Shown here: in pieces, positions 10,429 through 29,290 of the stretch
How the letters are laid out: each line of letters opens with the position of its first letter
Numbering within the stretch: position 1 is the stretch's first letter
Source: a virus
Taxonomy: Duplodnaviria > Heunggongvirae > Uroviricota > Caudoviricetes
DNA length: 37,024 nt
Reading direction: 5' to 3' (one strand)
IMG/VR virus record: IMGVR_UViG_3300028422_001686
The notes under the pieces: generated by a model
Databases searched by the model: none
What the model was told of the DNA's origin: nothing
Seen by the model: only the letters and a program-made list of their open reading frames with translations
Position numbers and translations under genes: made by a program

Positions 10429-11032
10429 TATACCTAGGCTTTCCTTGCCATCTTAATATCTCACTGATATTTAATTCTTCAGTTCTTATCCTTTCAAATA
10501 ATTCATCTAGAACGCTGCCGTCTATTCTTGAACTTAGACTAGAAAAAGTATCTATTTCTTCTGTATCTGCAATATCTAATAGTTCTTCTTCACTATAGAT
10601 TTGATTTAAAAGTTTTGAATCATCTGCTAGATACTGTAAAATTAAATATGAAAATATTGAATTAATATTTATAAAACCTCTTTGAGAGTTGTTAATCGGA
10701 TTGTTCTTAACAGCGGTGATTAGCTCTAAATGGTTATTGGATAAAATCTGAATGAAGTCTATAAAGTTGTCTCTTTCCTCATCTGGTAGATCTTCGAGGT
10801 GAGAGGCAACTAATTTATCTAGCCTTTCTGGTAGTAATGGCCAGTTAGGATAGAAGAACTCTTTATATATGTGCTTGAGGGTTGGTCTTTTAAAAATAAC
10901 TTGAAGTTTTTCCTCAAAAGGTAGGCTCTTGAAGTTTATAGATGATAAGCTTTGAGCCGGGCTGGTCTTTTCTAAAATGTTTTTCAATCGTGACTTTTTG
11001 TATAAGCGAGTCATCTGTATATACCTTTTCAT
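10367..11032 (-). CDS. Hypothetical helical protein
   Basis: 221-aa ORF. The true start may be the ATG near 11014. No family recognised. Confidence 0.6.
   Translation of the reverse strand: MKRYIQMTRLYKKSRLKNILEKTSPAQSLSSINFKSLPFEEKLQVIFKRPTLKHIYKEFFYPNWPLLPERLDKLVASHLEDLPDEERDNFIDFIQILSNNHLELITAVKNNPINNSQRGFININSIFSYLILQYLADDSKLLNQIYSEEELLDIADTEEIDTFSSLSSRIDGSVLDELFERIRTEELNISEILRWQGKPRYINHLGFVKRFHQSDELQDRS
10412..10442. terminator. Probable bidirectional terminator / perfect inverted repeat at convergence point
   Basis: AAAGCCTAGGT-N9-ACCTAGGCTTT (11-bp perfect arms) where + and - gene runs meet. Confidence 0.6.
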
Positions 11033-11339
11033 TTAAAATATCTAATTCTAATTTTCCCATATTTTGAATATCTTTTCTGCGTTTAGTACCAAAATAGCAT
11101 ATTAGCTTTACTTCCAAAGGAAAATCGTAAGGATCCTTAGTGTTAATTTGAGATTCAATTTGCTCAAGGTATTCTTTTTGGTAGTTTTTAAATTTAGCAG
11201 GAAGATAAACCATTGCGGTTAATTTACCACTTTTTGTCTTCATTGCTCTAGCTGCATAACCATTTATTGGACTAATCGGTTCCAGATTGCTTTCTAGACT
11301 TTCTAAGGGCTTTTGCTCGTTCTCTAACTTGTTTTGCAT
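10914..11339 (-). CDS. rusA: RusA-family Holliday junction resolvase
   Basis: LEVKLICYF...RRKDIQNMGKLELDILNEKVYTDDSLIQKVTIEK matches RusA D-x-x-N-x-x-K-x-x-x-D...DD-x-x-(I/V). Confidence 0.8.
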   Translation of the reverse strand: MQNKLENEQKPLESLESNLEPISPINGYAARAMKTKSGKLTAMVYLPAKFKNYQKEYLEQIESQINTKDPYDFPLEVKLICYFGTKRRKDIQNMGKLELDILNEKVYTDDSLIQKVTIEKHFRKDQPGSKLIIYKLQEPTF

Positions 11340-11994: not shown

Positions 11995-12039
11995 AATAAA
12001 ATTATATTTTTTTTGGGATCATATTACAAGGAGTTTTTT

Positions 12040-12996
12040 ATGGCTGAACGCGGTAGTTTTATAAATAGCATCAATTTAAAAGATGCAACATTGAAGTGGA
12101 TGGGACGTTCACAATTTAGATCTAAAAGTAAGGGTACATTTTGGCCCTCTGAGGCTAGTGCTGAGTATATTAATGAATATGGTGAACAGTGTATTATGGG
12201 AAAATGCCATAGAGCAGTTTACTATAGGCATAAAGGTTATGAAGTAACAGATCCACCTTCACCTAAGTCTCAAATTATTTTTGAACTAGGTCGCCAGATA
12301 GAGAATGCAATGGTTGAAATCTGGAAACAGATGGGGATTTGGGAGAATAATTCGCTTAAATGGGAAAATAAAGAAAGGAACATTTCAGGTGAATACGATG
12401 TTATTCTGAAAGTAAATGGAAGCCCAATAGGTGTTGAATTAAAGTCTTTTTATGGATACTATGCTAACAAGCAAATTGCTGGTCATTCTTCTGGTAGAGG
12501 GGCCAATAAAATTTGGATTCCTGGTAGACCAAAAGATGAAAATTTAATGCAGGCCGCATTGTATTGCTGGAACGAGTTTGATAGAATTGACGGATTCAAA
12601 CTATATTATGTCTCTAGAGATAAAAGTGATATGTATGAATTTAATATTCATGTGAATGAAGATGGGTCTATCTTTATTAATAACTTAAAAGATTCTCGTA
12701 TTACAATGCATAGCATATTAAACAGATATATTAGAATGGCTTCATATATTGATAATGATATTAAGCCTCCTCGAGAATTTACACTCTACCCATCTGATGA
12801 AAGAGTAGAGGTATTAAAAAATCGTGGAGATATATCAGACTCAGCTTATAAGGCTCATATAACTGGTAAATGTAAAATTACAGATTTTCACTGTAGTTAT
12901 TGTGACTATAAAAGATTGTGCTGGAACATAGATACTGATGATCTAGAAGAAATTCCAGTGATAACGGAAGGGGATGAGGAGAATGAGCAGGGTTAA
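12040..12996 (+). CDS. Cas4-like / RecB-family PD-(D/E)XK exonuclease
   Basis: WPSEAS...KCHRAVYY, ISGEYDVIL...VELKS, QAALY, C-terminal CSYCDYKRLC (4-Cys Fe-S staple pattern). Start set to ATG 12040 (RBS AGGAG 12029-12033). Confidence 0.8.
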   Translation: MAERGSFINSINLKDATLKWMGRSQFRSKSKGTFWPSEASAEYINEYGEQCIMGKCHRAVYYRHKGYEVTDPPSPKSQIIFELGRQIENAMVEIWKQMGIWENNSLKWENKERNISGEYDVILKVNGSPIGVELKSFYGYYANKQIAGHSSGRGANKIWIPGRPKDENLMQAALYCWNEFDRIDGFKLYYVSRDKSDMYEFNIHVNEDGSIFINNLKDSRITMHSILNRYIRMASYIDNDIKPPREFTLYPSDERVEVLKNRGDISDSAYKAHITGKCKITDFHCSYCDYKRLCWNIDTDDLEEIPVITEGDEENEQG

Positions 12997-17697: not shown

Positions 17698-18186
17698 ATG
17701 AATTCATTAGCTGGTATTGCTATGCATTTAGACGACAAACTCAAAAAGATTTTGTCAGAGAATAACGTCGAAACCTATGGTCCTGCATATAATGGAGAGT
17801 CAGTAGGTCTTGATCTCTATTATACAGGCGACACTGCCGTCACTCTAGTTAAAGAAGTATGGGAGAAAAAACTTCTATCTACTGGCGTTAGAGTCGTTCT
17901 TCCACCAAATACTGTAGGTCTTTTAATGGAAAGAGGTAGTATTGTAAAGACTCCCTTGAAACTTAGAGCAGGCGTTATTGATCCCGGATATACAGGAGAA
18001 ATTTTCGTTAACTTAATTAATCCATATAATGAGCCATATACTATCTCTCCTGGAGATAAACTTCCTGTTCAGCTAGTTAGTATTGCTAATGTAGTGACTA
18101 CTTATAATGAAGTCAGTACTGATGACTTTAATGTTTTAACTTCTCTTTCTAATCGTAAGGAAGGCAAAATTGGGAGTTCAAACTAA
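17698..18186 (+). CDS. dut: Trimeric dUTPase
   Basis: SVGLDL, TGVRV, ERGS, AGVIDPGYTGEI, RKEGKIGSS (dUTPase motifs I-V). Confidence 0.9.
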   Translation: MNSLAGIAMHLDDKLKKILSENNVETYGPAYNGESVGLDLYYTGDTAVTLVKEVWEKKLLSTGVRVVLPPNTVGLLMERGSIVKTPLKLRAGVIDPGYTGEIFVNLINPYNEPYTISPGDKLPVQLVSIANVVTTYNEVSTDDFNVLTSLSNRKEGKIGSSN

Positions 18187-20072
18187 TGGAAGAACAAGAT
18201 TTAAGTAAAATCGGAAGAGACTTATTAAGTAAGATTATTATTTTTACAAAATATTCTAGATATATGCCTCATGAAAAAAGAAGAGAAATCTACGATGAGA
18301 TTATTGATAGAAATCTTAAGATGATGATCGCTAAATATAGAAATAAGCCCGAAGTAATTAAGTACATCAATCAAGCCTATTCAATGGTTTATTCAATGAA
18401 GGGGCTTCCTAGTATGAGGGCATTGCAGTTTTCTGGAGCCGCTATTGAAACATGTCCTTCAAGAATATTCAATTGTGCTGCTCTACCTATGGACCACTAT
18501 AAAGCCTTTTCAGAAATTATGTTTCTGCTTTTAGGTGGAACTGGAGTCGGCTTTAGTGTCCAGAAACGACATGTAGAAAAACTTCCTCCAATTAATAAAC
18601 CAACTAAAAATCGTAGATTTTTAATCAACGACACTATTGAAGGTTGGTCAGATGCAGTTAAAGCTCTAATTGAAGCCTATCTTAATGGAAAATCTAAACC
18701 TATTTTTGATTTTAGATCTATTAGGGCAAAAGGAACTCCACTAAAAACATCTGGGGGTAAAGCTCCAGGGCCAGAGCCATTAAAACATTGTCTTCATGTT
18801 ATTGAGCTTATGCTTGAGAGAAAAGAGAATGGTGAACAGCTTCGTCCTATTGAAGTACATGACATCAACTGTCATATTGCGAACGCAGTAAGGGCAGGTG
18901 GTATTAGACGTGCTGCTACTATATCCTTATTCGATATGGATGACAACGAGATGCTTGCTGCTAAATCTGGTGACTGGTATATCTCAAATCCTCAAAGACA
19001 ACTAGCGAATAACTCTGCAGTTATTCTTCGACACAAGATTAAAGAAGATGAATTTAAAGCTTTTATGGAGCGTGTAAGAGCTAGTGGATGTGGTGAGCCT
19101 GGCTTTCTACTTTCAAATGATCCAGAAATGCTTGTAAATCCGTGTGCTGAAGCCTCTCTTCGCCCTTTTACATTCTGTAATTTAGTTGAAGGAAATGCTG
19201 CATCAATTGAATCCCAAGAGGATTATAATGAGATGTGTAGATCGTTGTCTGTTATCTCTACTCTTCAATCTACTTTTACTGACTTTCACTATCTCAGAGA
19301 TGTATGGAAAAGAAACACAGAAAGAGACGGGCTTATTGGTGTCTCCATGACAGGGATTGGCTCAAATAATCTAGAACTTAAAGGTATAGATGTAGCTCAA
19401 GGCGCAAAGATAGCTAATGAGACTAATGCCGAACTCGCAGAACTCATTGGTGTAAATCCAGCCGCTAGATGCACTGTTTTAAAACCAGCAGGAACTACAT
19501 CAGCAGTTCTTGGAACTTCTTCTGGTATCGGATCCTGGTTTGCAGAATACTTTTTAAGACGTATTCGTATTGGCAAAGATGAGCCTATCCATGATTATTT
19601 ACTTAAAAAGGTACCTAATCTAATTGAAGATGACTTTTTTGATCCAGAGAGACAAAGTGTTCTAGCTGTTCCAATGAAAGCACCAGATGGAGCAATTCTT
19701 TCTACTACAGAAGGCCCCATTGATTACCTAGAGAGAATTAAAAGATATTACTTATCCTGGATTCTACCCGGTCACAACCGAGGAAGTAACACTAATAATA
19801 TATCAGCTACGGTATATATCGGTGAGGATGAATGGGATAAGGTGACATCTTGGATGTGGGAAAATAAAGACTATTACACTGGCCTTAGTGTTCTCCCTAA
19901 AGACAACAAGGTTTATAAGCAAATGCCTTTTGAAGAGATTTCAAAAGAAGATTATGAAAGATTCTTAACATATCTTAACCCAATTGATCTTACTGAGGTT
20001 ATTGAGATTGATGATATGACTGACCTAACAGGTGAAGCTGCTTGTTCGGGTGGAAAATGTGAAATCTTATAA
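18186..20072 (+). CDS. nrdJ: Class II (adenosylcobalamin-dependent) ribonucleotide reductase
   Basis: PSMRALQFSG, IFNCA, GGTGVGFSV, NPCAE, FCNLVE, KPAGTTS, C-terminal ACSGGKC. No beta subunit gene nearby. Confidence 0.92.
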   Translation: MEEQDLSKIGRDLLSKIIIFTKYSRYMPHEKRREIYDEIIDRNLKMMIAKYRNKPEVIKYINQAYSMVYSMKGLPSMRALQFSGAAIETCPSRIFNCAALPMDHYKAFSEIMFLLLGGTGVGFSVQKRHVEKLPPINKPTKNRRFLINDTIEGWSDAVKALIEAYLNGKSKPIFDFRSIRAKGTPLKTSGGKAPGPEPLKHCLHVIELMLERKENGEQLRPIEVHDINCHIANAVRAGGIRRAATISLFDMDDNEMLAAKSGDWYISNPQRQLANNSAVILRHKIKEDEFKAFMERVRASGCGEPGFLLSNDPEMLVNPCAEASLRPFTFCNLVEGNAASIESQEDYNEMCRSLSVISTLQSTFTDFHYLRDVWKRNTERDGLIGVSMTGIGSNNLELKGIDVAQGAKIANETNAELAELIGVNPAARCTVLKPAGTTSAVLGTSSGIGSWFAEYFLRRIRIGKDEPIHDYLLKKVPNLIEDDFFDPERQSVLAVPMKAPDGAILSTTEGPIDYLERIKRYYLSWILPGHNRGSNTNNISATVYIGEDEWDKVTSWMWENKDYYTGLSVLPKDNKVYKQMPFEEISKEDYERFLTYLNPIDLTEVIEIDDMTDLTGEAACSGGKCEIL

Positions 20073-22202: not shown

Positions 22203-22231
22203 TAGACATTCTATCCTAGGTAAAATATAAT
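22203..22231 (+). promoter_or_regulatory. Sigma70-type promoter heading the radical SAM operon
   Basis: TAGACA-N17-TATAAT. Confidence 0.6.
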
Positions 22232-22261
22232 ACACTTATCACTGATAAAAAGGATAATATA

Positions 22262-22681
22262 ATGATCACTAAACATGCAATTAACATCTCTGCTCCTGCC
22301 AATGTTCTTTTAACAATGAAGACATCTAACTCCAAAATTATCTCTATTGTAAATAGTAACGGAGATGAAAAATACAATACTGTTGACATTTCATATTTAA
22401 ATAATAACGCTGAGTTATCATTCTCAGAGGCTTTTTCAGGATATGCATATGAGTATTACGCTGAGAGTACTTCTGAGCTTGAAGGCCGAATTAAAGACCT
22501 AGAAAATGCATTACTCCATGTTGCAGATATTCAGAATAAAATGCTGACACTCAATCAAGTAAAAGCATTGTTTGAAGAAAATGCTCTAGCTATTTCTGTT
22601 TTAGAAACAAAGGTTGAAACTTTATCTACAACCCTAGACGAACTTAAGGTGCAAGTAGAAAAACAAACTCAATGGAACTAG
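22262..22681 (+). CDS. Hypothetical protein with C-terminal coiled coil
   Basis: RBS AAGGA. Heptad-like C-terminus. First gene of the operon. Confidence 0.65.
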   Translation: MITKHAINISAPANVLLTMKTSNSKIISIVNSNGDEKYNTVDISYLNNNAELSFSEAFSGYAYEYYAESTSELEGRIKDLENALLHVADIQNKMLTLNQVKALFEENALAISVLETKVETLSTTLDELKVQVEKQTQWN

Positions 22682-22682
22682 T

Positions 22683-23753
22683 ATGTGTAATCTGTCTCTC
22701 TGTAAAAAAGAATTAATGATATATCTGAAAACTACAGAGTTTTGCAACCTTAACTGTCATCACTGTTATAACGGTGAAGAAGGTGTCAAATTAAGCAACT
22801 TTTTAAATACATTTAATAAAGATAAAACGGTTGAGTTTATCAAACAAATGGATGGTAAATTTGACCTAATAGACATCTCTTTTCATGGTGGAGAGCCACT
22901 TTTGGCAGATCCATTGGATATGTTTTATACCTATACGGCTATTAATGAAATGGAAACAGACATTAGATGGGGTATTCAAAGTAACCTATCAATGCAACTA
23001 GATGATGACAGAAAACAGCTGCTGACTATTCTTGCTAAAAATGGTGGCATGGGAACATCTTGGGACTATGATTTAAGATTTCATACACGAGAAATATATG
23101 ATACATGGCGTGAAAATGTTGATTTTATTAATGATATCGAAGGGGCAAGTAATACCTTAATTGTCTCTATGTCTAAACGTCTTGTGACAGAGACAAAAGC
23201 TATAGATATTATTAAGTTCGCCAAATCAATAGGGTTTGATGCAATTCTATTTGAAAGAATTACAAAGTCAGGAAACGCTTTGAATTTTAATAGAATAATT
23301 CCCACAAGTGCTGAAGTGGATAAATACACATTAGATATGTATAATGACACTGTGGAAACAGGAATATATACTGATATAAAGAATAATTATCTATCTTCTA
23401 TCCTCTATCCTTATGTGTTTGGTTCTTTTACAGGCTGTAGAAGTCGAGAATGCGCCCAGAGAGTAATGACAATTAATGCTAATGGATCTATCTCTGGATG
23501 CCCTAACTCTGCTCATAAGGTTATTTTTGGCTCAATTAATAACTCGTTTGAAGATGTCCTAAAAGCTCCTCTTAGAAAAAATGAGATTATAAAAGAGCAA
23601 GTAAGTAAGTGTATGCAGTGTGAATATCTAGACCGCTGTAATGGTGACTGCTATCAACTTACTTATGACGATGAGTGTTATTCTCCAAAGTCTCTATATA
23701 AACTGTTAGAGAAATTACCAAGTCCAGCACTTTTAAAAAAGATAGTATTATAG
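22683..23753 (+). CDS. Radical SAM / SPASM-domain protein 1
   Basis: CNLNCHHC (CX3CX2C), FHGGEPL, C-terminal GCRSREC...GSISGC...CMQCEYLDRCNGDC...C. Confidence 0.9.
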   Translation: MCNLSLCKKELMIYLKTTEFCNLNCHHCYNGEEGVKLSNFLNTFNKDKTVEFIKQMDGKFDLIDISFHGGEPLLADPLDMFYTYTAINEMETDIRWGIQSNLSMQLDDDRKQLLTILAKNGGMGTSWDYDLRFHTREIYDTWRENVDFINDIEGASNTLIVSMSKRLVTETKAIDIIKFAKSIGFDAILFERITKSGNALNFNRIIPTSAEVDKYTLDMYNDTVETGIYTDIKNNYLSSILYPYVFGSFTGCRSRECAQRVMTINANGSISGCPNSAHKVIFGSINNSFEDVLKAPLRKNEIIKEQVSKCMQCEYLDRCNGDCYQLTYDDECYSPKSLYKLLEKLPSPALLKKIVL

Positions 23754-23765
23754 CGGAGTAAGATC

Positions 23766-24446
23766 ATGACTATTTCTAGAGAAAAAATTTCAAAAGCAAG
23801 AACGGTACAAGAGTTCTTAAATAATGTCACAAACTATGTAAAGACTCACTATTTATGGCACAGACAGTCCTATCCTACAGGTGTTTACTTTCCTTACCAA
23901 TGGTTAGACTATTCATCTAATGTGCTAGGCCCAACTACATCAGAACTAGATACTGAAGCTGTTTCTGCTCAGGACTTTGCTCAAAGCTTTGAGTCATGGT
24001 GCAAGACATATACAAGAGCCAGAAAATTAAGACATGTTCTCTATAAAAGACAGTCAGGGAAGTACTATGTAGATACTCCACTTTTAGTAGAATATGATAG
24101 TACAAACTATGCTCTATTTAGTCCAAGTGCTAATATTGTCAATGAAGGAACAGCCTATGCTGTAGGAACTACAGGGTGGAGTTCTAGTGCACAATGGAGA
24201 GTTGTGTCTGGATTAAAAACAGGACTTAATACTGCTGCCTACGCAGGAATAGAAGCAATCAATGAGGCTGCCGGAGTAGATGAAGATATTCCAGCCTATA
24301 TATCTAGCTTCAATACTTTAATTTCAAACCTTAAAAGTAACTGGGTAACAAATCGCGAGACCTTAACAACAAGTGTATACTATTACTGCCATACTAATTG
24401 TTATAGTAAATGTCATAGTAACTGTCACTCTAGGAGTAGAAGATGA
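23766..24446 (+). CDS. Putative radical SAM substrate protein with C[HY]xx-repeat C-terminal tail
   Basis: Ends CHTN-CYSK-CHSN-CHSR-SRR. Only one other Cys in the rest of the protein. Embedded among rSAM genes. Confidence 0.65.
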   Translation: MTISREKISKARTVQEFLNNVTNYVKTHYLWHRQSYPTGVYFPYQWLDYSSNVLGPTTSELDTEAVSAQDFAQSFESWCKTYTRARKLRHVLYKRQSGKYYVDTPLLVEYDSTNYALFSPSANIVNEGTAYAVGTTGWSSSAQWRVVSGLKTGLNTAAYAGIEAINEAAGVDEDIPAYISSFNTLISNLKSNWVTNRETLTTSVYYYCHTNCYSKCHSNCHSRSRR

Positions 24447-25090
24447 TCCTTCCTTTAGAAGTAGATGAACTCTTAAAACTCATGGATAGTGAAGATAGTA
24501 AAAATGAAACTCTCGCTATAGATTATGAAAACTCTGAATTAAAAAGTAGAGATTTCATGAACTATGTCACTAATCTTGGATTAAAAATTAAGTTAGAGAA
24601 CTATGATAATGTTTCAAAAGAAGAGATGGCGGAGCTCATTCATGCCTACATGGGAACTAAATGCCTAATAGAACCTATTGCTGAGCTTGATGACATCATT
24701 GCTACAGCACTGGTAGCTAACCATTTAGATGACAATATCAACTATGTCTATGAGTTCAACAAGACTAGAATCGATGCTTTAGGCCAATTGATTAGAGAAA
24801 TACCACTGGCTATTGCCCTAATGGAAAGTGACATTGCAGAGTCCTTAGATCTAACAGGAGTTACAGTTTATGAAGAATTGGATGAAAAAGATACGCTTAT
24901 ATATAATGGTATCGGCGTTTTGTTACTCGATGATTTTGTTGAGCTATATATATCGATTAAAGGTATTTCTAAAGAAGTAAATAAAGAAAAATTTCTAACT
25001 CCAATCTATAAAAATAATTCTTTATATAACTTTCTCACTGCTAATGACTTTTCATTATTCCAGGTTTATACTGGCTTAATGAGTATGTAG
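24443..25090 (+). CDS. Acidic hypothetical protein (rSAM-cluster accessory)
   Basis: ATGA-coupled to the putative substrate gene. No catalytic motif recognised. Confidence 0.7.
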   Translation: MILPLEVDELLKLMDSEDSKNETLAIDYENSELKSRDFMNYVTNLGLKIKLENYDNVSKEEMAELIHAYMGTKCLIEPIAELDDIIATALVANHLDDNINYVYEFNKTRIDALGQLIREIPLAIALMESDIAESLDLTGVTVYEELDEKDTLIYNGIGVLLLDDFVELYISIKGISKEVNKEKFLTPIYKNNSLYNFLTANDFSLFQVYTGLMSM

Positions 25091-25098
25091 GAGCAAAC

Positions 25099-25986
25099 AT
25101 GATACAGATTGACAATATAAGATACCTCTGTTGGACAGAGGCCTTCCCCTCTATACCTCATAATGAGTCTTATATTCTTATTGATGAGCGTTACACAGAA
25201 GAGCAAAAGAAAAGCAACCTGAAGGTTAGACCTTTTGGCGAGTTAGAGCCTTGTTATATTTTTTCTAACACTCAAGAAATGTTCGACTATCAAAAGGTAA
25301 ATGACGTAGACTTTTGGGCTGAATGGATAGTTGCAGACACTAAGTCATTCTGTAAAATCCTTCACTCTATTGTCGATAAAACATATTATCTATGCGATCA
25401 AGATCTTAGCTATAGAGATCTTTTAAATGCCTATTTTTTAGATTTTTATAGAAAAAACTATAGGGGGATGAATAGAGAAGACGCTATATCTCTATATAAT
25501 GAATTACTTTATGGCGAAGAGCTTTTAGAGGAAAGTCTTAACCCTTATACTTTTGAGCATCAATTGCTGTGCGATCCTCCTGATATCTCTGAAGACATCC
25601 AGGATTGTTTTAATAGATGGAGGGAACAACAGCTAGGCTCTATTTATTACGATCTTATAAAACACTACAATGGTCCATATGGAAGTTTGGGATTATTTAA
25701 TGGTGAAGTTAAAGACTTAATTAACTACGAACTTAATGATGTAAATCTTACAAAGGTCGGAGTTTTTCTTTCATGGGTTACAGGTATGAGTCACAGTGAG
25801 ATTCCAATAGAAGCACTGAAGCTAGACATAGAAAAAGCTGACTTCCACTCACTCCTTAAATGTGACCATGGAACTACATCACATTTAGCCTATTTTGACT
25901 ATATGGATGCCAGTAGGCTTTGTTCTTTAAATGTTATACGTTTCCTTTATGGTGTTGGAGAATTTGACAATGAAATCAATGGCTAG
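25099..25986 (+). CDS. Acidic hypothetical protein (rSAM-cluster accessory)
   Basis: RBS AGGAG. 295 aa. No family recognised. Confidence 0.7.
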   Translation: MIQIDNIRYLCWTEAFPSIPHNESYILIDERYTEEQKKSNLKVRPFGELEPCYIFSNTQEMFDYQKVNDVDFWAEWIVADTKSFCKILHSIVDKTYYLCDQDLSYRDLLNAYFLDFYRKNYRGMNREDAISLYNELLYGEELLEESLNPYTFEHQLLCDPPDISEDIQDCFNRWREQQLGSIYYDLIKHYNGPYGSLGLFNGEVKDLINYELNDVNLTKVGVFLSWVTGMSHSEIPIEALKLDIEKADFHSLLKCDHGTTSHLAYFDYMDASRLCSLNVIRFLYGVGEFDNEING

Positions 25987-27004
25987 ACAATTACTTGGAA
26001 TGAAAATAAAAAATGATTATGAGATAGAAGTTTGCCTTACACAGTATTGCACTAAAGGGTGCCACTTCTGTTATCAAGGTCGTGACTCATCTAGCGAAAT
26101 TGAAACACAAACAATACTTAATTCAATCAATAGAACCATTGAAAAAGCACCAAAAGAAATAAACAGGTTTAAAATTAGTCTACTGGGTGGAGAGCTCTTT
26201 GACCCTTCTTTTGAGAGCTTTCAAGAGCGTTTAGATGTTTATGGGAATATTATTGAAAGTATAATAAACAAAAACCCAGGAAAACTAATCGACTTTGTTG
26301 TTGTAACAAACCTAGAAAGAAATGATTCTGAGTCAGTAAAAATGATTACAGAGTTTCTAGATAATTTAAATAAAGAAAGTTCTAGAGTTAAACTGTCTAC
26401 ATCGTATTATCCAAATGAGACCTCTGAGTTAAATAAGGACTTTATAGGAACACTTCTAGCTTATGACAAAAGGATTGATGGAGTCACTGTAGTTATGACC
26501 TCAGAAACCATAGGTCATATTATTAAAGGTGATGAAACATTTAAATGGTTATATGACTCTAACTACAACATACAATTAGATTATTATACACCTAATTCAG
26601 CTTCTGAAATGCTAATGCCATCTGACCTAGACCTGTATAATTTCTTTACCTACCTAAAGGTGACTGCCCCTAAAATAGAACTTATAGACGCACTATCAAA
26701 TGGAAATGTAAGTCATACATCATGTGCAAGTCCGAATAAATCTACGGTCCTCCCGAATGGAGAAGTTATTGCGTGTAAATATGATATTTCTGATAATGAT
26801 CGATACTTAGTTCCTATTTGCCAAAGATCAAATGAAAATATAATTCTATCTTTTATGAATCAAAATAGCTGTCTTAGTTGTGAATTCTATAAACGGTGCC
26901 CACTTGGATGCTTTGTTATGTTTAACCATAAAGACTATTTAAAAAAGAAAACACTTAGCGGTTGCATTTTTAAAAACTTTTTTAATAAATATAAGGCGGA
27001 ATAA
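25970..27004 (+). CDS. Radical SAM / SPASM-domain protein 2
   Basis: CTKGCHFC, LLGGELF, SCAS...NGEVIAC...CLSCEFYKRCPLGC...C. Start probably ATG 25970 or 25979 rather than 25931. Confidence 0.88.
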   Translation: MKSMARQLLGMKIKNDYEIEVCLTQYCTKGCHFCYQGRDSSSEIETQTILNSINRTIEKAPKEINRFKISLLGGELFDPSFESFQERLDVYGNIIESIINKNPGKLIDFVVVTNLERNDSESVKMITEFLDNLNKESSRVKLSTSYYPNETSELNKDFIGTLLAYDKRIDGVTVVMTSETIGHIIKGDETFKWLYDSNYNIQLDYYTPNSASEMLMPSDLDLYNFFTYLKVTAPKIELIDALSNGNVSHTSCASPNKSTVLPNGEVIACKYDISDNDRYLVPICQRSNENIILSFMNQNSCLSCEFYKRCPLGCFVMFNHKDYLKKKTLSGCIFKNFFNKYKAE

Positions 27005-28057
27005 ATGTATAATTTAACAGAGCTAGTAGAGATTGTTAAATATAGTCTCTTTAATATTCCTAAAAAACAAGAAGGGTCTATTGACCTAATAATCAAACCC
27101 ACTGGTAAATGTAATTTTGCATGTACTTTTTGCTCTTCTCATCTTTATTCTTTAGGGAACGATAAACTTCCTGTCTCCACTATTAGAAAATACCTACTAG
27201 ACTATAATGTTAATTCTATTATAGTCAATGGAGGTGAACCATTAATGATGGATCCGAAGTATTACTTTGATATACTCAAAGACATTCGGAGATTTTCTCC
27301 TAATACCCAGATATCTATAACGACTAATCTCTGGGACTATTGTGAGAACCCTCAAAAATGGAAGGAATTATTTATGCAGAAAGAGGTGGGAGTTATTACC
27401 TCTTTTCAGCCTGATGGAACGAGAATCATTAAGGATAGAGGTGAACCCTTTACTAAAGAAATGTTTTCATTCTGGCTTCAAGAGTTTAAGCAAGAAATTG
27501 GTTATATGCCACACTTTATAACAGTAGCTTCTAGAGATAACTTAGATGGCTGTATAGATGCAATTAAATTAGCAAAAGATCTTGGAACTATCTGTAAAGT
27601 TATTCCGCTTGATAATGCAGGTAGAAGTAGAGATCTTCTAACAACTGGTGAGCTTTTTAAATTCTATGAAAGAGTTTATGAAGAGGGGCTTTCAAAGTAT
27701 GAGGAAAATACTTCCTTAATTGTTGGTGGTAGACTGCTAGGAGCATGTCCATTCTTGCATGGAAAATGCTACAAACACATCATTGCCTTGGATCCAGATG
27801 GTGAAGAGTATAAGTGCGGGGCTATGGCTGATAAAATGCGTCAATTAACAAAGGACGCATATGTTGTTCCTCTAAAACAGGAATGTACAACTTGTAGGTA
27901 TTTCAATTATTGTAATGGTTGTGCTAATACAGTTTTTAGTATGGCAACTAAATATACTATAATAGATTCAGAAGATAAAACAATCTCTTTCTCTAATCAT
28001 ACCAATCTTAATTGTAAGTCAATGAAGTCTCTAACGACTCTTAATCAATTTCTTTAA
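27005..28057 (+). CDS. Radical SAM / SPASM-domain protein 3
   Basis: IKPTGKCNFACTFC, NGGEPL, ACPFLHGKC...DGEEYKC...CTTCRYFNYCNGC...C. Confidence 0.9.
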   Translation: MYNLTELVEIVKYSLFNIPKKQEGSIDLIIKPTGKCNFACTFCSSHLYSLGNDKLPVSTIRKYLLDYNVNSIIVNGGEPLMMDPKYYFDILKDIRRFSPNTQISITTNLWDYCENPQKWKELFMQKEVGVITSFQPDGTRIIKDRGEPFTKEMFSFWLQEFKQEIGYMPHFITVASRDNLDGCIDAIKLAKDLGTICKVIPLDNAGRSRDLLTTGELFKFYERVYEEGLSKYEENTSLIVGGRLLGACPFLHGKCYKHIIALDPDGEEYKCGAMADKMRQLTKDAYVVPLKQECTTCRYFNYCNGCANTVFSMATKYTIIDSEDKTISFSNHTNLNCKSMKSLTTLNQFL

Positions 28058-29051
28058 GAATATCGTATATTTGTCTATAGGAACACTCTTCTTCTTTTGA
28101 GTGTTCCTTTAAGGCACAGTCTACAGAGCAATGCTTTAAGTACTCACAACTAAGACATTGTTTTTTACAGGCTAAATCAAATAACATCTCATCTGGCCTA
28201 CATACTCTAGATTCAGTACAAGACATAATGTCATTCTCTGGAGTTACAACTAGGCTTTCTTTTCCACACTCCATTCTTGCTGATACTTCTTTATTAGCTC
28301 TTCCCTTCCACTCTTTTATTACACTAAATTTTGAAAATTTTGGATGATCTTTTACTAGTCTTACAAAGGATAGTAGTTGGCCTGTACTAGGAATAAGTTT
28401 CTTAAAATCGCTTCCACCAAACACACCTAAATTATTCTTTACTATACTGAAATTAACAGGATATTTTTCTAGTAGGTAGTAAAAATAAGCCGGGATGTCG
28501 CCATCTAAAAACCGGGTTATCGTATTATTAGTTAAAACGAAATTAACTCCGTCAATTAAACTCTCTAAATTCTTTTCATTTTCCTTAAATATTTCTTCCT
28601 GCTCTTCGGTTAAATTCCTGTCTGCTAAATCATATGACACAACAAGTTTCATAGGTGCACACAAACGTATAGCCTCAATAAAATACTTTACTCTTTTCCA
28701 ATTTTTAAATATCAGATTAGATGCCATATCAAAAGATACATTCTTTCCTAAAAGCTTTCCGTAATCCGCCGAGTTAACAACGAGATCCAATACGCCAAGA
28801 AGAAATTCATTTGAAATTGAGTCATCAAAAGTCTCCCCACCAAGTATAGTCGTCAGTACGTTTTCTGCCTTGATGTTTCTATAAAAATCCATTAATATTT
28901 CTTTCTTTTTAGCTAGCGATTCAAATGTTAGTCCTACATCTGACTTATGTGGTTGCTTACAGAAAGCACAATTCAATGAGCATTTGTAAAATAAAAACAC
29001 CTCCGCATCTGCAAAGTTCTCATCTTTTAATGCTGGTAAAACTAATCCCAC
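28041..29051 (-). CDS. Radical SAM / SPASM-domain protein 4
   Basis: CSLNCAFC, LGGETF, ECG...DIMSC...CLSCEYLKHCSVDC...C. GTG start at 29051 (RBS GGAGG) preferred over 29066. Confidence 0.88.
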   Translation of the reverse strand: MGLVLPALKDENFADAEVFLFYKCSLNCAFCKQPHKSDVGLTFESLAKKKEILMDFYRNIKAENVLTTILGGETFDDSISNEFLLGVLDLVVNSADYGKLLGKNVSFDMASNLIFKNWKRVKYFIEAIRLCAPMKLVVSYDLADRNLTEEQEEIFKENEKNLESLIDGVNFVLTNNTITRFLDGDIPAYFYYLLEKYPVNFSIVKNNLGVFGGSDFKKLIPSTGQLLSFVRLVKDHPKFSKFSVIKEWKGRANKEVSARMECGKESLVVTPENDIMSCTESRVCRPDEMLFDLACKKQCLSCEYLKHCSVDCALKEHSKEEECSYRQIYDILKEID

Positions 29052-29290
29052 TTGCCCTCCGAGCATCTAGCTGCCAACAATGGCACCTTTAGATTCATAA
29101 AACATCCACATGACCTACATCTATTAGATGTCTCTATTAAGTAGTCACAATCAAAACAAATAGCCCATCTTTTCTCTTGAACATCTGGTGGAGCTATAGT
29201 CTTTCCTTCAGATGCCATCTTCCGAATAACAGACCCTGCGGTAAGCAAGGCCTGCTTCATCTTAAATCCTAACCCTTTATCGTCTTCCAT
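29042..29290 (-). CDS. Small Cys-rich protein (DUF6171-like)
   Basis: KRWAICFDC...NRCRSCGCFMNLKV...ARCSEGKW pattern. Confidence 0.65.
   Translation of the reverse strand: MEDDKGLGFKMKQALLTAGSVIRKMASEGKTIAPPDVQEKRWAICFDCDYLIETSNRCRSCGCFMNLKVPLLAARCSEGKWD

Follow-up and report, generated by a model that had tools for sequence, protein, structure and literature searches.

A radical SAM cassette conserved in large phages and its putative substrate, a protein with a Cys-His tail

Why does a large phage carry four radical S-adenosylmethionine (rSAM) enzymes almost side by side, and on what do they act? The question is raised by positions 22,203 to 29,290 of a 37,024-nucleotide stretch of DNA (the window in the following), which forms the end (37 kb) of an IMG/VR virus record of 188,132 bp that carries direct terminal repeats (IMGVR_UViG_3300028422_001686). 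In this region, four enzymes of the rSAM/SPASM type (R1 to R4) are encoded together with a 226-aa protein that ends in short repeats of Cys, His and further residues. A first reading, made from the letters alone (the sequence-only reading), had suggested that the phage cross-links a protein of its own. In our view, a rSAM cassette that is conserved in large phages probably modifies a retained protein covalently at its Cys-His tail. Four observations carry this view: the class of the enzymes, their genomic coupling to the tail protein, the invariance of the tail throughout its family, and the presence of one orthologue in a virion preparation.

The four rSAM/SPASM-type open reading frames (ORFs) of the sequence-only reading are borne out. 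R1 (22683-23753, plus strand), R2 (25931 or 25970 to 27004, plus; the start is probably 25970, which has GGAG upstream), R3 (27005-28057, plus) and R4 (28041-29066, minus) all contain CX3CX2C, GGE and the SPASM core CX2CX5CX2-3C, and all of them match phrog_1802, a phage rSAM family (2e-42, 2e-23, 7e-30 and 6e-14, respectively). The three motifs are located at residues 21, 69 and 310 in R1 (the last as CX2CX5CX3C), 40, 86 and 314 in R2, 36, 76 and 294 in R3 (CX2CX5CX2C), and 29, 76 and 304 in R4. In the ORF clustering of related loci described below, R1, the signature enzyme of the cassette, belongs to family F0 and R3 is a second enzyme of the F0 type; R2 belongs to family F3, and R4 is its F3 paralogue with 27% identity. 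Curated models, which the sequence-only reading had proposed as a check, divide the set: R1 passes PF04055, PF13186 and TIGR04085 and R3 passes PF04055, whereas R2 and R4 remain below the thresholds. For Pfam Radical_SAM (PF04055; gathering cut-off 29.5 bits), the scores are 33.2 bits for R1, 33.3 for R3 and 21.9 for R2, and R4 is without a Pfam match. For SPASM, R1 exceeds the cut-offs of PF13186 (22.3 vs. 21.5) and TIGR04085 (31.9 vs. 27); R2 (14.5) and R4 (13.7) stay below the cut-off and R3 gives no match, the core motif being present in all three. R1 and R3 are members of the radical SAM superfamily by score, and R1 is also a SPASM protein by score; since R2 and R4 are sub-threshold by curated models, their assignment rests on the motifs, the phrog_1802 matches and F3-family homology. 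Beyond the SAM cluster, the R1 family has eight Cys positions with no or almost no variation, of which R1 of the window has seven at the family positions and C252 near the eighth. Eight Cys suffice to ligate two auxiliary clusters fully; in anSME the auxiliary clusters are likewise fully Cys-ligated.

The gene that follows R1 (23766..24446, plus) encodes the 226-aa protein, the putative substrate and the window's member of family F1. Its tail CHTNCYSKCHSNCHSRSRR is encoded at about 24387-24443, and the C-terminus YYYCHTNCYSKCHSNCHSRSRR can be read as CHTN-CYSK-CHSN-CHS-RSRR, with one Cys elsewhere in the protein. Homology extends over the full length to 65 tail proteins at 16-27% identity, and C208, H209, C212, C216 and H217 are invariant in this alignment. 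Across 166 distinct tails, 502/502 repeats begin with Cys-His, and 85% have Ser at position 4; exactly three repeats are found in 163 of these tails and an RxRR end in 152. Compared with this consensus the window tail is atypical, having four repeats, one Tyr for His and the end SRSRR. The bodies of the family are homologous over their full length, with sizes of 126-364 aa, ~20% identity and a median of 0 Cys outside the tail. A profile search of 1.84 billion representatives yielded 877 clusters at 50% identity, 656 of them with E <= 1e-10, and the members that were looked up are all named hypothetical. One sub-family of tails ends in CHSNCHGSCHGS-I/L without RxRR (L056, L058, L061, L066, L068-L071, L074-L076, L079); its cassettes contain only two SPASM rSAMs and one B12-binding rSAM. 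Another member, P0050 (453 aa, 12 cluster members), is longer and has the tail-protein domain at residues 271-453, which shows that fusion of the module to an extension at the N-terminus is possible.

The predicted model of the 226-aa protein (pLDDT 67, pTM 0.61) displays a folded alpha/beta body, whose last strand (200-208) leads into a low-confidence tail. It has no fold match in the PDB, and in BFVD it matches family members only, including gp170 of phage Atu_ph07. A tblastn search of cultured phages with the protein gave no match, and among 5.8 billion proteins a word-based search retrieved nothing but a 135-aa piece of this very protein. No signal peptide is visible in it. Two other views of the tail were considered. 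A c-type-haem-like reading as CX3CH was dropped in view of the missing export signal, the missing haem lyase and the odd number of Cys. Decay of the gene would hardly be expected with an intact frame, tightly coupled neighbours and a complete set of enzymes; there is no close relative in which conservation could be seen.

How tightly, then, are tail and enzymes linked? A tblastn search with R1 retrieved 15 cultured jumbo-phage records (Atu_ph07, Phosso, RSL2/RSF1/FLC/SURPRISE13 and pPa_SNUABM_DT01), and in Atu_ph07, Phosso and SURPRISE13 the product encoded directly downstream of the R1 orthologue terminates in CHxSCHxSCHxSRxRR. All-against-all BLAST relates R1 to gp171 of Atu_ph07, the tail protein to gp170, the 215-aa protein encoded after it to gp169, R2 and R4 to gp168, and R3 to gp165; orthologues of R2 and R3 are 287 and 284 in Phosso, and that of R2 in SURPRISE13 is gp76. 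R1, the tail protein, the 215-aa protein, R2/R4 and R3 follow a gene order that the window has in common with Atu_ph07, Phosso and the RSL2-like jumbo phages; at the DNA level, blastn with the 7.6-kb block found no counterpart among cultured phages. In IMG/VR, a profile search revealed 360 relatives of R1, a single-sequence search none; the related-locus analyses cover 80 of these loci. A tail ORF of the form (CHxS)3-RxRR, or -I/L in the sub-family, is present in 73 of the 80, nearly always as the next gene. For the reverse test, IMG/VR was scanned for the DNA pattern of the tail, which gave 120 loci, 113 with a C-terminal tail ORF. A rSAM gene is close to 80 of these 113, either an R1 orthologue within 1.5 kb (69 loci) or another rSAM within 6 kb (11 loci); the flank is too short to judge at 13 loci, and the stored chunk contains no rSAM at 20. 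The latter 20 encode short tail proteins (126-191 aa), mostly in tandem pairs, and four of five tested contigs among them, all fragments, carry an R1 orthologue elsewhere. Because of these distant R1 genes, co-occurrence is strong at the level of the genome, although adjacency is not universal. The co-occurrence of C[HY]xx-tail and rSAM genes in large phages, whose absence the sequence-only reading had named among its refuting conditions, is found in both directions and in hundreds of such phages.

Within the short tail proteins, a sub-family of 126-140 aa is encoded as tandem pairs away from R1 (L091, L127, L168, L170 and ~15 further viral loci); in these phages, a second rSAM directly follows the R1 orthologue. 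On present evidence the family looks phage-borne, since only three contigs of metagenome-assembled genomes (MAGs) were confirmed among 185,579 species genomes in the cellular search, a count that is a lower bound because confirmation used the divergent window query. One of the three, a 3.6-kb Bacteriovoracia contig (L090), encodes a 202-aa protein with the four-repeat tail CHGSCHSSCHGSCHGSRGRR adjoining two rSAM genes; it could be a phage contig or the cellular copy of a predatory bacterium.

The fate of the tail protein is indicated by published proteomics. Attai et al. analysed Atu_ph07, partially purified with polyethylene glycol (PEG), by mass spectrometry of gel slices and listed gp170 at 31.89 kDa with 8 unique peptides and 35.16% coverage, detected in slices 1-9 and most abundant in slice 1, the uppermost (PMC6102473 Table S5). 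Slice 1 held proteins of 127-139 kDa, and proteins of 29-34 kDa peaked in slices 7-8 (PMC6102473). Atu_ph07 gp165, 168, 169, 171 and 172 are absent from the virion-preparation list (PMC6102473 Table S5). The identity of gp170 was verified: for the tail-protein orthologue of 296 aa a mass of 31.89 kDa was calculated, the masses of gp176 and gp177 also agree with the table, and gp170 matches the tail-family profile with E = 1e-29. The occurrence of this orthologue in the preparation, without the neighbouring enzymes, favours a retained protein over a secreted, ribosomally made peptide that carries post-translational modifications (RiPP), as the sequence-only reading had argued.

It appears highly improbable that the cassette makes a released RiPP-like product, in which the body would act as a long leader and the modified tail would be cut off to act on the host or on competitors. 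The layout of an enzyme followed by its precursor would suit such a product, as would the tandem duplicates of short tail proteins in some phages, which resemble the multiple precursors of RiPP clusters; the basic RxRR end could act as a processing or targeting signal. The tail, however, is located at the extreme C-terminus and comprises only 15-19 residues, the Atu_ph07 orthologue is detected at 35% coverage in the particle preparation, and neither a peptidase nor an exporter is encoded in or near the window cassette or among the conserved cassette families. The earlier claim that the window lacks both types of gene holds for 20-37 kb, where family searches found no peptidase or exporter family, but not for the whole window: a Peptidase_C92 gene (permuted papain-like YaeF/YiiX amidase; 1874-2500, plus) resides in the replication module, ~20 kb from the cassette, and is the sole peptidase-fold gene seen in the window.

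Which reaction might the enzymes catalyse? In NCBIfam, R1 ranks highest with DynA (62 bits), anSME (55) and PapB (47), CbpB and DarE also being among the best; DynA is the top match of R3 as well, followed by HxsC. The best PDB sequence matches are 8VPO, ChlB and anSME (29-36 bits). In line with the sequence-only reading, the enzymes resemble peptide and protein maturases (DynA, anSME, PapB, CbpB, DarE) rather than QueE-like enzymes. None of R1-R4 reaches the curated threshold of any characterised maturase family; because all maturase scores are far below the cut-offs, the enzymes are best regarded as a distinct SPASM lineage, to which a reaction is not assignable.

Four groups of known systems are nevertheless instructive. 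In the HXS system (HxsA/B/C/D, TIGR03976-03979), several rSAMs and a small partner mature a full-length protein at repeated His-x-Ser, and each CHxS unit of the family consensus contains H-x-S. HxsB and HxsC install a +8 Da shift at the motif SHRSS (Li et al., Nat Commun 2026, PMC13128918). HXS is a defence system of the bacterial periplasm, and its repeats have a 3-residue period and no Cys, whereas the present cassette is phage-encoded with a 4-residue repeat period and invariant Cys. R3 scores 36.7 vs. 267.9 bits with HxsC, over residues 33-108 (the rSAM core), and NCBIfam shows no HxsA, HxsB or HxsD match among the cassette proteins, which places the cassette outside HXS. Like anSME (TIGR03942; PDB 4K36-4K39), the second-best family match of R1 and one of the PDB matches, the phage enzyme is a minimal SPASM rSAM (~350-370 aa) with presumably fully Cys-ligated auxiliary clusters and without a RiPP recognition element (RRE) domain; anSME acts on Cys or Ser of a folded protein. 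In contrast to one enzyme and one site, the phages have four enzymes and 3-4 repeats, R1 attains 55.4 vs. 349 bits, and the tail lacks the sulfatase motif C/S-x-P/A-x-R. CrpC/CrpA and PapB/PapA resemble the locus in that a rSAM/SPASM gene lies beside that of a Cys-rich protein or peptide with regular C-x3 spacing. QhpD/QhpC represents a thioether-forming SPASM maturase acting on a protein. CrpC illustrates that thioether-type cross-links can be installed on a real protein (PMC13692751). In these phages, however, the neighbours of the tail Cys are His and Ser, with no Asp/Glu as acidic acceptor, and R1 scores 47.0 vs. 340 bits with PapB (NF047865). Triceptide (three-residue cyclophane) and dynobactin maturases (XyeB, YhhB, ChlB, DynA, DarE), finally, are SPASM rSAMs that link an aromatic ring, including that of His, to a carbon two residues away; the His-x-Ser of the tail fits this aromatic-x-x pattern, and ChlB is a PDB match. 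Their substrates are short exported peptides with leaders and RRE recognition, whereas the phage substrate would be one ~200-aa, putatively retained protein, and the DynA (NF041298) score of R1 is 61.9 vs. 450 bits. By analogy with these systems, the most likely reaction would be the formation of Cys-S or His-ring cross-links within the C-H-x-S unit, similar to ranthipeptides or triceptides; an Hxs-like modification would be the second candidate and oxidation of Cys or Ser to formylglycine the third.

From these comparisons, and from the genomic and particle data, we infer that the tail is the substrate, which type of chemistry is used, in what order the enzymes act and what the protein does in the particle. 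The cassette could operate in the following manner: The 226-aa protein would be made late in infection with a flexible C-terminal tail, (Cys-His/Tyr-x-x)4 plus RSRR. R1, aided by the 215-aa partner, and then R2, R3 and R4 may modify this tail covalently through 5'-deoxyadenosyl radical chemistry, the most likely products being intramolecular links from the Cys sulfur or the His ring to the carbon of a neighbouring residue in each four-residue unit. The tail protein would be neither cleaved nor exported and may stay as a structural or particle-associated component, encoded near fibre/baseplate genes. Fibre-type genes adjoin the cassette both in this window and in other phages. A predicted complex of R1 with the tail protein (residues 170-226), SAM and three clusters scored 0.02 and has no bearing either way.

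Several points weigh against modification of a retained tail. The evidence from virions derives from one PEG-purified preparation, which also lists RecA-like protein, single-stranded DNA-binding protein, ribonucleotide reductase and topoisomerase (PMC6102473). The peak in slice 1 could arise from oligomers resistant to sodium dodecyl sulfate, which are common in fibre proteins, without any covalent bond, and the RSL2 orthologue, ORF068, is annotated as hypothetical, while the neighbouring ORF065 is called a virion structural protein. The tail gene and a rSAM gene do not always lie next to each other. In the window tail, position 4 of the repeats is N, K and N instead of Ser, with no close relative to show that the variant is conserved. 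The chemistry is a guess because no enzyme attains the cut-off of a characterised maturase, and the Cys3His3 tail could also be a plain metal site.

In the latter case, the tail would be a metal or Fe-S binding module, serving either as electron donor or cluster carrier for the rSAMs or as a structural metal site in a trimeric fibre, and the rSAMs would act elsewhere. The invariant Cys and His are classical metal ligands, with the eight conserved auxiliary Cys there is no iron site evidently free to bind the thiolate of a substrate, and in some cases the gene of the tail protein is distant from those of the enzymes. Metal in a phage fibre has a precedent in T4 gp37, where His-x-His motifs hold iron in the trimer. 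A redox carrier, however, would hardly have bodies as variable as these (126-364 aa, ~20% identity) with only the tail fixed; tandem copies of the tail protein occur, the protein is found in the virion preparation without the enzymes, and a simple structural metal site would not explain why the rSAMs co-occur at the level of the genome. On this balance, we regard a pure metal module as unlikely.

It is very unlikely that the rSAMs form an auxiliary metabolic module unrelated to the tail protein and act in small-molecule, cofactor, tetrapyrrole or nucleic-acid chemistry. Weaker family matches of the enzymes include NirJ, AhbC, MoaA and QueE, dihydrofolate reductase genes occur inside the RSL2-like block, and phage rSAM sets have been read as metabolic genes (PMC2853527, PMC5332604). 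These matches rank below the maturase matches, though, and mostly cover the shared rSAM core, the reductase genes are lineage-specific, and the almost obligate link to an invariant peptide motif has no other explanation. Somewhat less remote, but still doubtful, is a more ambitious variant of tail modification, in which the cassette would convert the C-terminus of a particle protein into a cofactor, polycyclic or metal-holding, and be a viral counterpart of HXS.

Covalent modification of the tail remains the preferred reading. The composition of the cassette was obtained by ORF clustering of the 80 loci and counted over 53 loci with enough flank. The F2 partner, represented by the 215-aa ORF in the window, occurs in all 53, the tail ORF in 50, a second F0-type rSAM in 48 and an F3 rSAM in 46; these are accompanied by a cupin (41/53), F7, a family of unknown function (39/53), 2-oxoglutarate (2OG)-Fe(II) oxygenases (30/53), a B12-binding rSAM (22/53) and an F11 rSAM (20/53). 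The modal number of rSAMs per cassette is four (38/53 loci). Genes for a giant protein with DUF4815 and for a second one that contains a Peptidase_G2 intramolecular-chaperone domain usually lie upstream, both being hallmarks of fibres or spikes. The window, with the order F0, F1, F2, F3, F0, F3, contains the (CHxS)3-RxRR cassette (F0, F1, F2, F3) in canonical order with a deviating tail; it has neither a cupin nor a 2OG oxygenase, like 12 of the 53 loci, and is the most divergent copy sampled, a minimal, rSAM-only and oxygenase-free one. In a tree of R1, the window enzyme stands alone on a very long branch (2.66 changes per column), and the oxygenase-bearing cassettes form one derived, well-supported group. 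In SURPRISE13, two genes annotated as dihydrofolate reductase (gp77-78; L002 13409-14586) lie between the rSAM genes of the RSL2-type cassette.

Seven plus-strand ORFs, three of them encoding rSAMs, span 22,262-28,057 of the window with spacings of 1, 12, -4, 8, -56 (-17 with the R2 start at 25970) and 0 nt. The tightly coupled unit of the sequence-only reading is retained for these plus-strand genes, whose spacings are at most 12 nt, but excludes R4, the last gene of a convergent minus-strand unit. For the same reason, R4 is not behind the promoter-like site TAGACA-17-TATAAT (11/12; 22203..22231, plus), which lies ahead of the plus-strand unit and is the best match of the region. The site is suggestive only and, as such sites occur in chance number (35 observed vs. 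36.2 +/- 6.7 in shuffled sequence), not evidence by itself; the idea of one sigma70-type promoter for all rSAM genes is not supported. Among the accessory ORFs, the 215-aa one is a constant part of the cassette, while those of 139 and 295 aa are orphans found only here. The 215-aa protein (family F2; 24443..25090, plus) is translationally coupled to the tail protein through a 4-nt overlap and belongs to phrog_20767, a family of unknown function. Its predicted model is confident (pLDDT 88), has no fold relative in the PDB (Foldseek E > 1; VIA Z <= 3.8) and matches only one unnamed AlphaFold cluster. The 139-aa coiled-coil ORF (22262..22681, plus) ends 1 nt before R1, in the slot of the cupin in most related cassettes, with no family above threshold and no homologue across the 80 related loci. 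The acidic 295-aa ORF (25099..25986, plus) occupies the slot held by F7 in other cassettes; it has no family matches and no relation to the F7 profile, and against Atlas its leads score only 0.78, which is chance level. An 82-aa Cys-rich DUF6171 protein (29042..29290, minus; PF19668 7e-8, phrog_13558) is encoded across the start of R4; small proteins of this family are common in phages but missing from other cassettes, and membership of this one in the system is uncertain.

The surroundings confirm that the DNA belongs to a phage, an uncultured one, as had been assumed for its phage origin. In addition to the terminal repeats of the record, the left part of the window contains genes for a UvsX-like recombinase, a DnaE-type polymerase, a primase-helicase, a dUTPase and a ribonucleotide reductase, followed by an amidase endolysin and Hsp20, and tail-fibre-like genes occupy the minus strand at the right end. 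The convergent minus-strand unit includes fibre genes, a lipoprotein, a membrane protein, the DUF6171 mini-protein and, last, R4. The replication module also includes a Cas4-like exonuclease (phrog_1706; 12013-12996, plus) and a RusA resolvase (10914-11339, minus). Outside the window, the same phage genome encodes two further CX3CX2C proteins (108539-109321, plus, and 18070-19407, minus): one, of 260 aa, is a relative of RlmN/Cfr-like RNA methyltransferases (69 bits), the other a 445-aa ORF without an NCBIfam match.

To our knowledge, protein maturation by rSAM enzymes is confined to a handful of cellular cases (sulfatases, QHNDH, CrpA, HxsA), and we know of no virus particle protein among them. 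Maturation of whole proteins by rSAM enzymes as such is already known from anSME, QhpD, CrpC (PMC13692751) and HxsB/C. Published phage papers list such genes only as "radical SAM" or "Fe-S oxidoreductase", and a full-text literature search found no paper on the motif, the multi-enzyme set, the universal orphan-fold partner or the phage and particle context. In current annotation, the enzymes are only generically radical SAM, and all other parts of the cassette are hypothetical.

Because 7-14 kb are kept in hundreds of large-phage lineages, the cassette must pay for itself. If the cofactor variant were true, the tail would be a covalently stapled or redox-active virion element at the host envelope in adsorption or DNA entry, and it would be the first case in any virus of a structural protein matured by radical SAM enzymes. 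Direct tests are within reach, since cultured hosts exist for Atu_ph07, the RSL2-like phages and Phosso, and the rSAM-only version of the window defines a minimal enzyme set for heterologous reconstitution without oxygenases (R1 and the 215-aa partner together with two or three other rSAMs). The gain to be expected would be twofold, a peptide chemistry that is new for a Cys-His-x-Ser motif and a step of phage assembly that is new as well.

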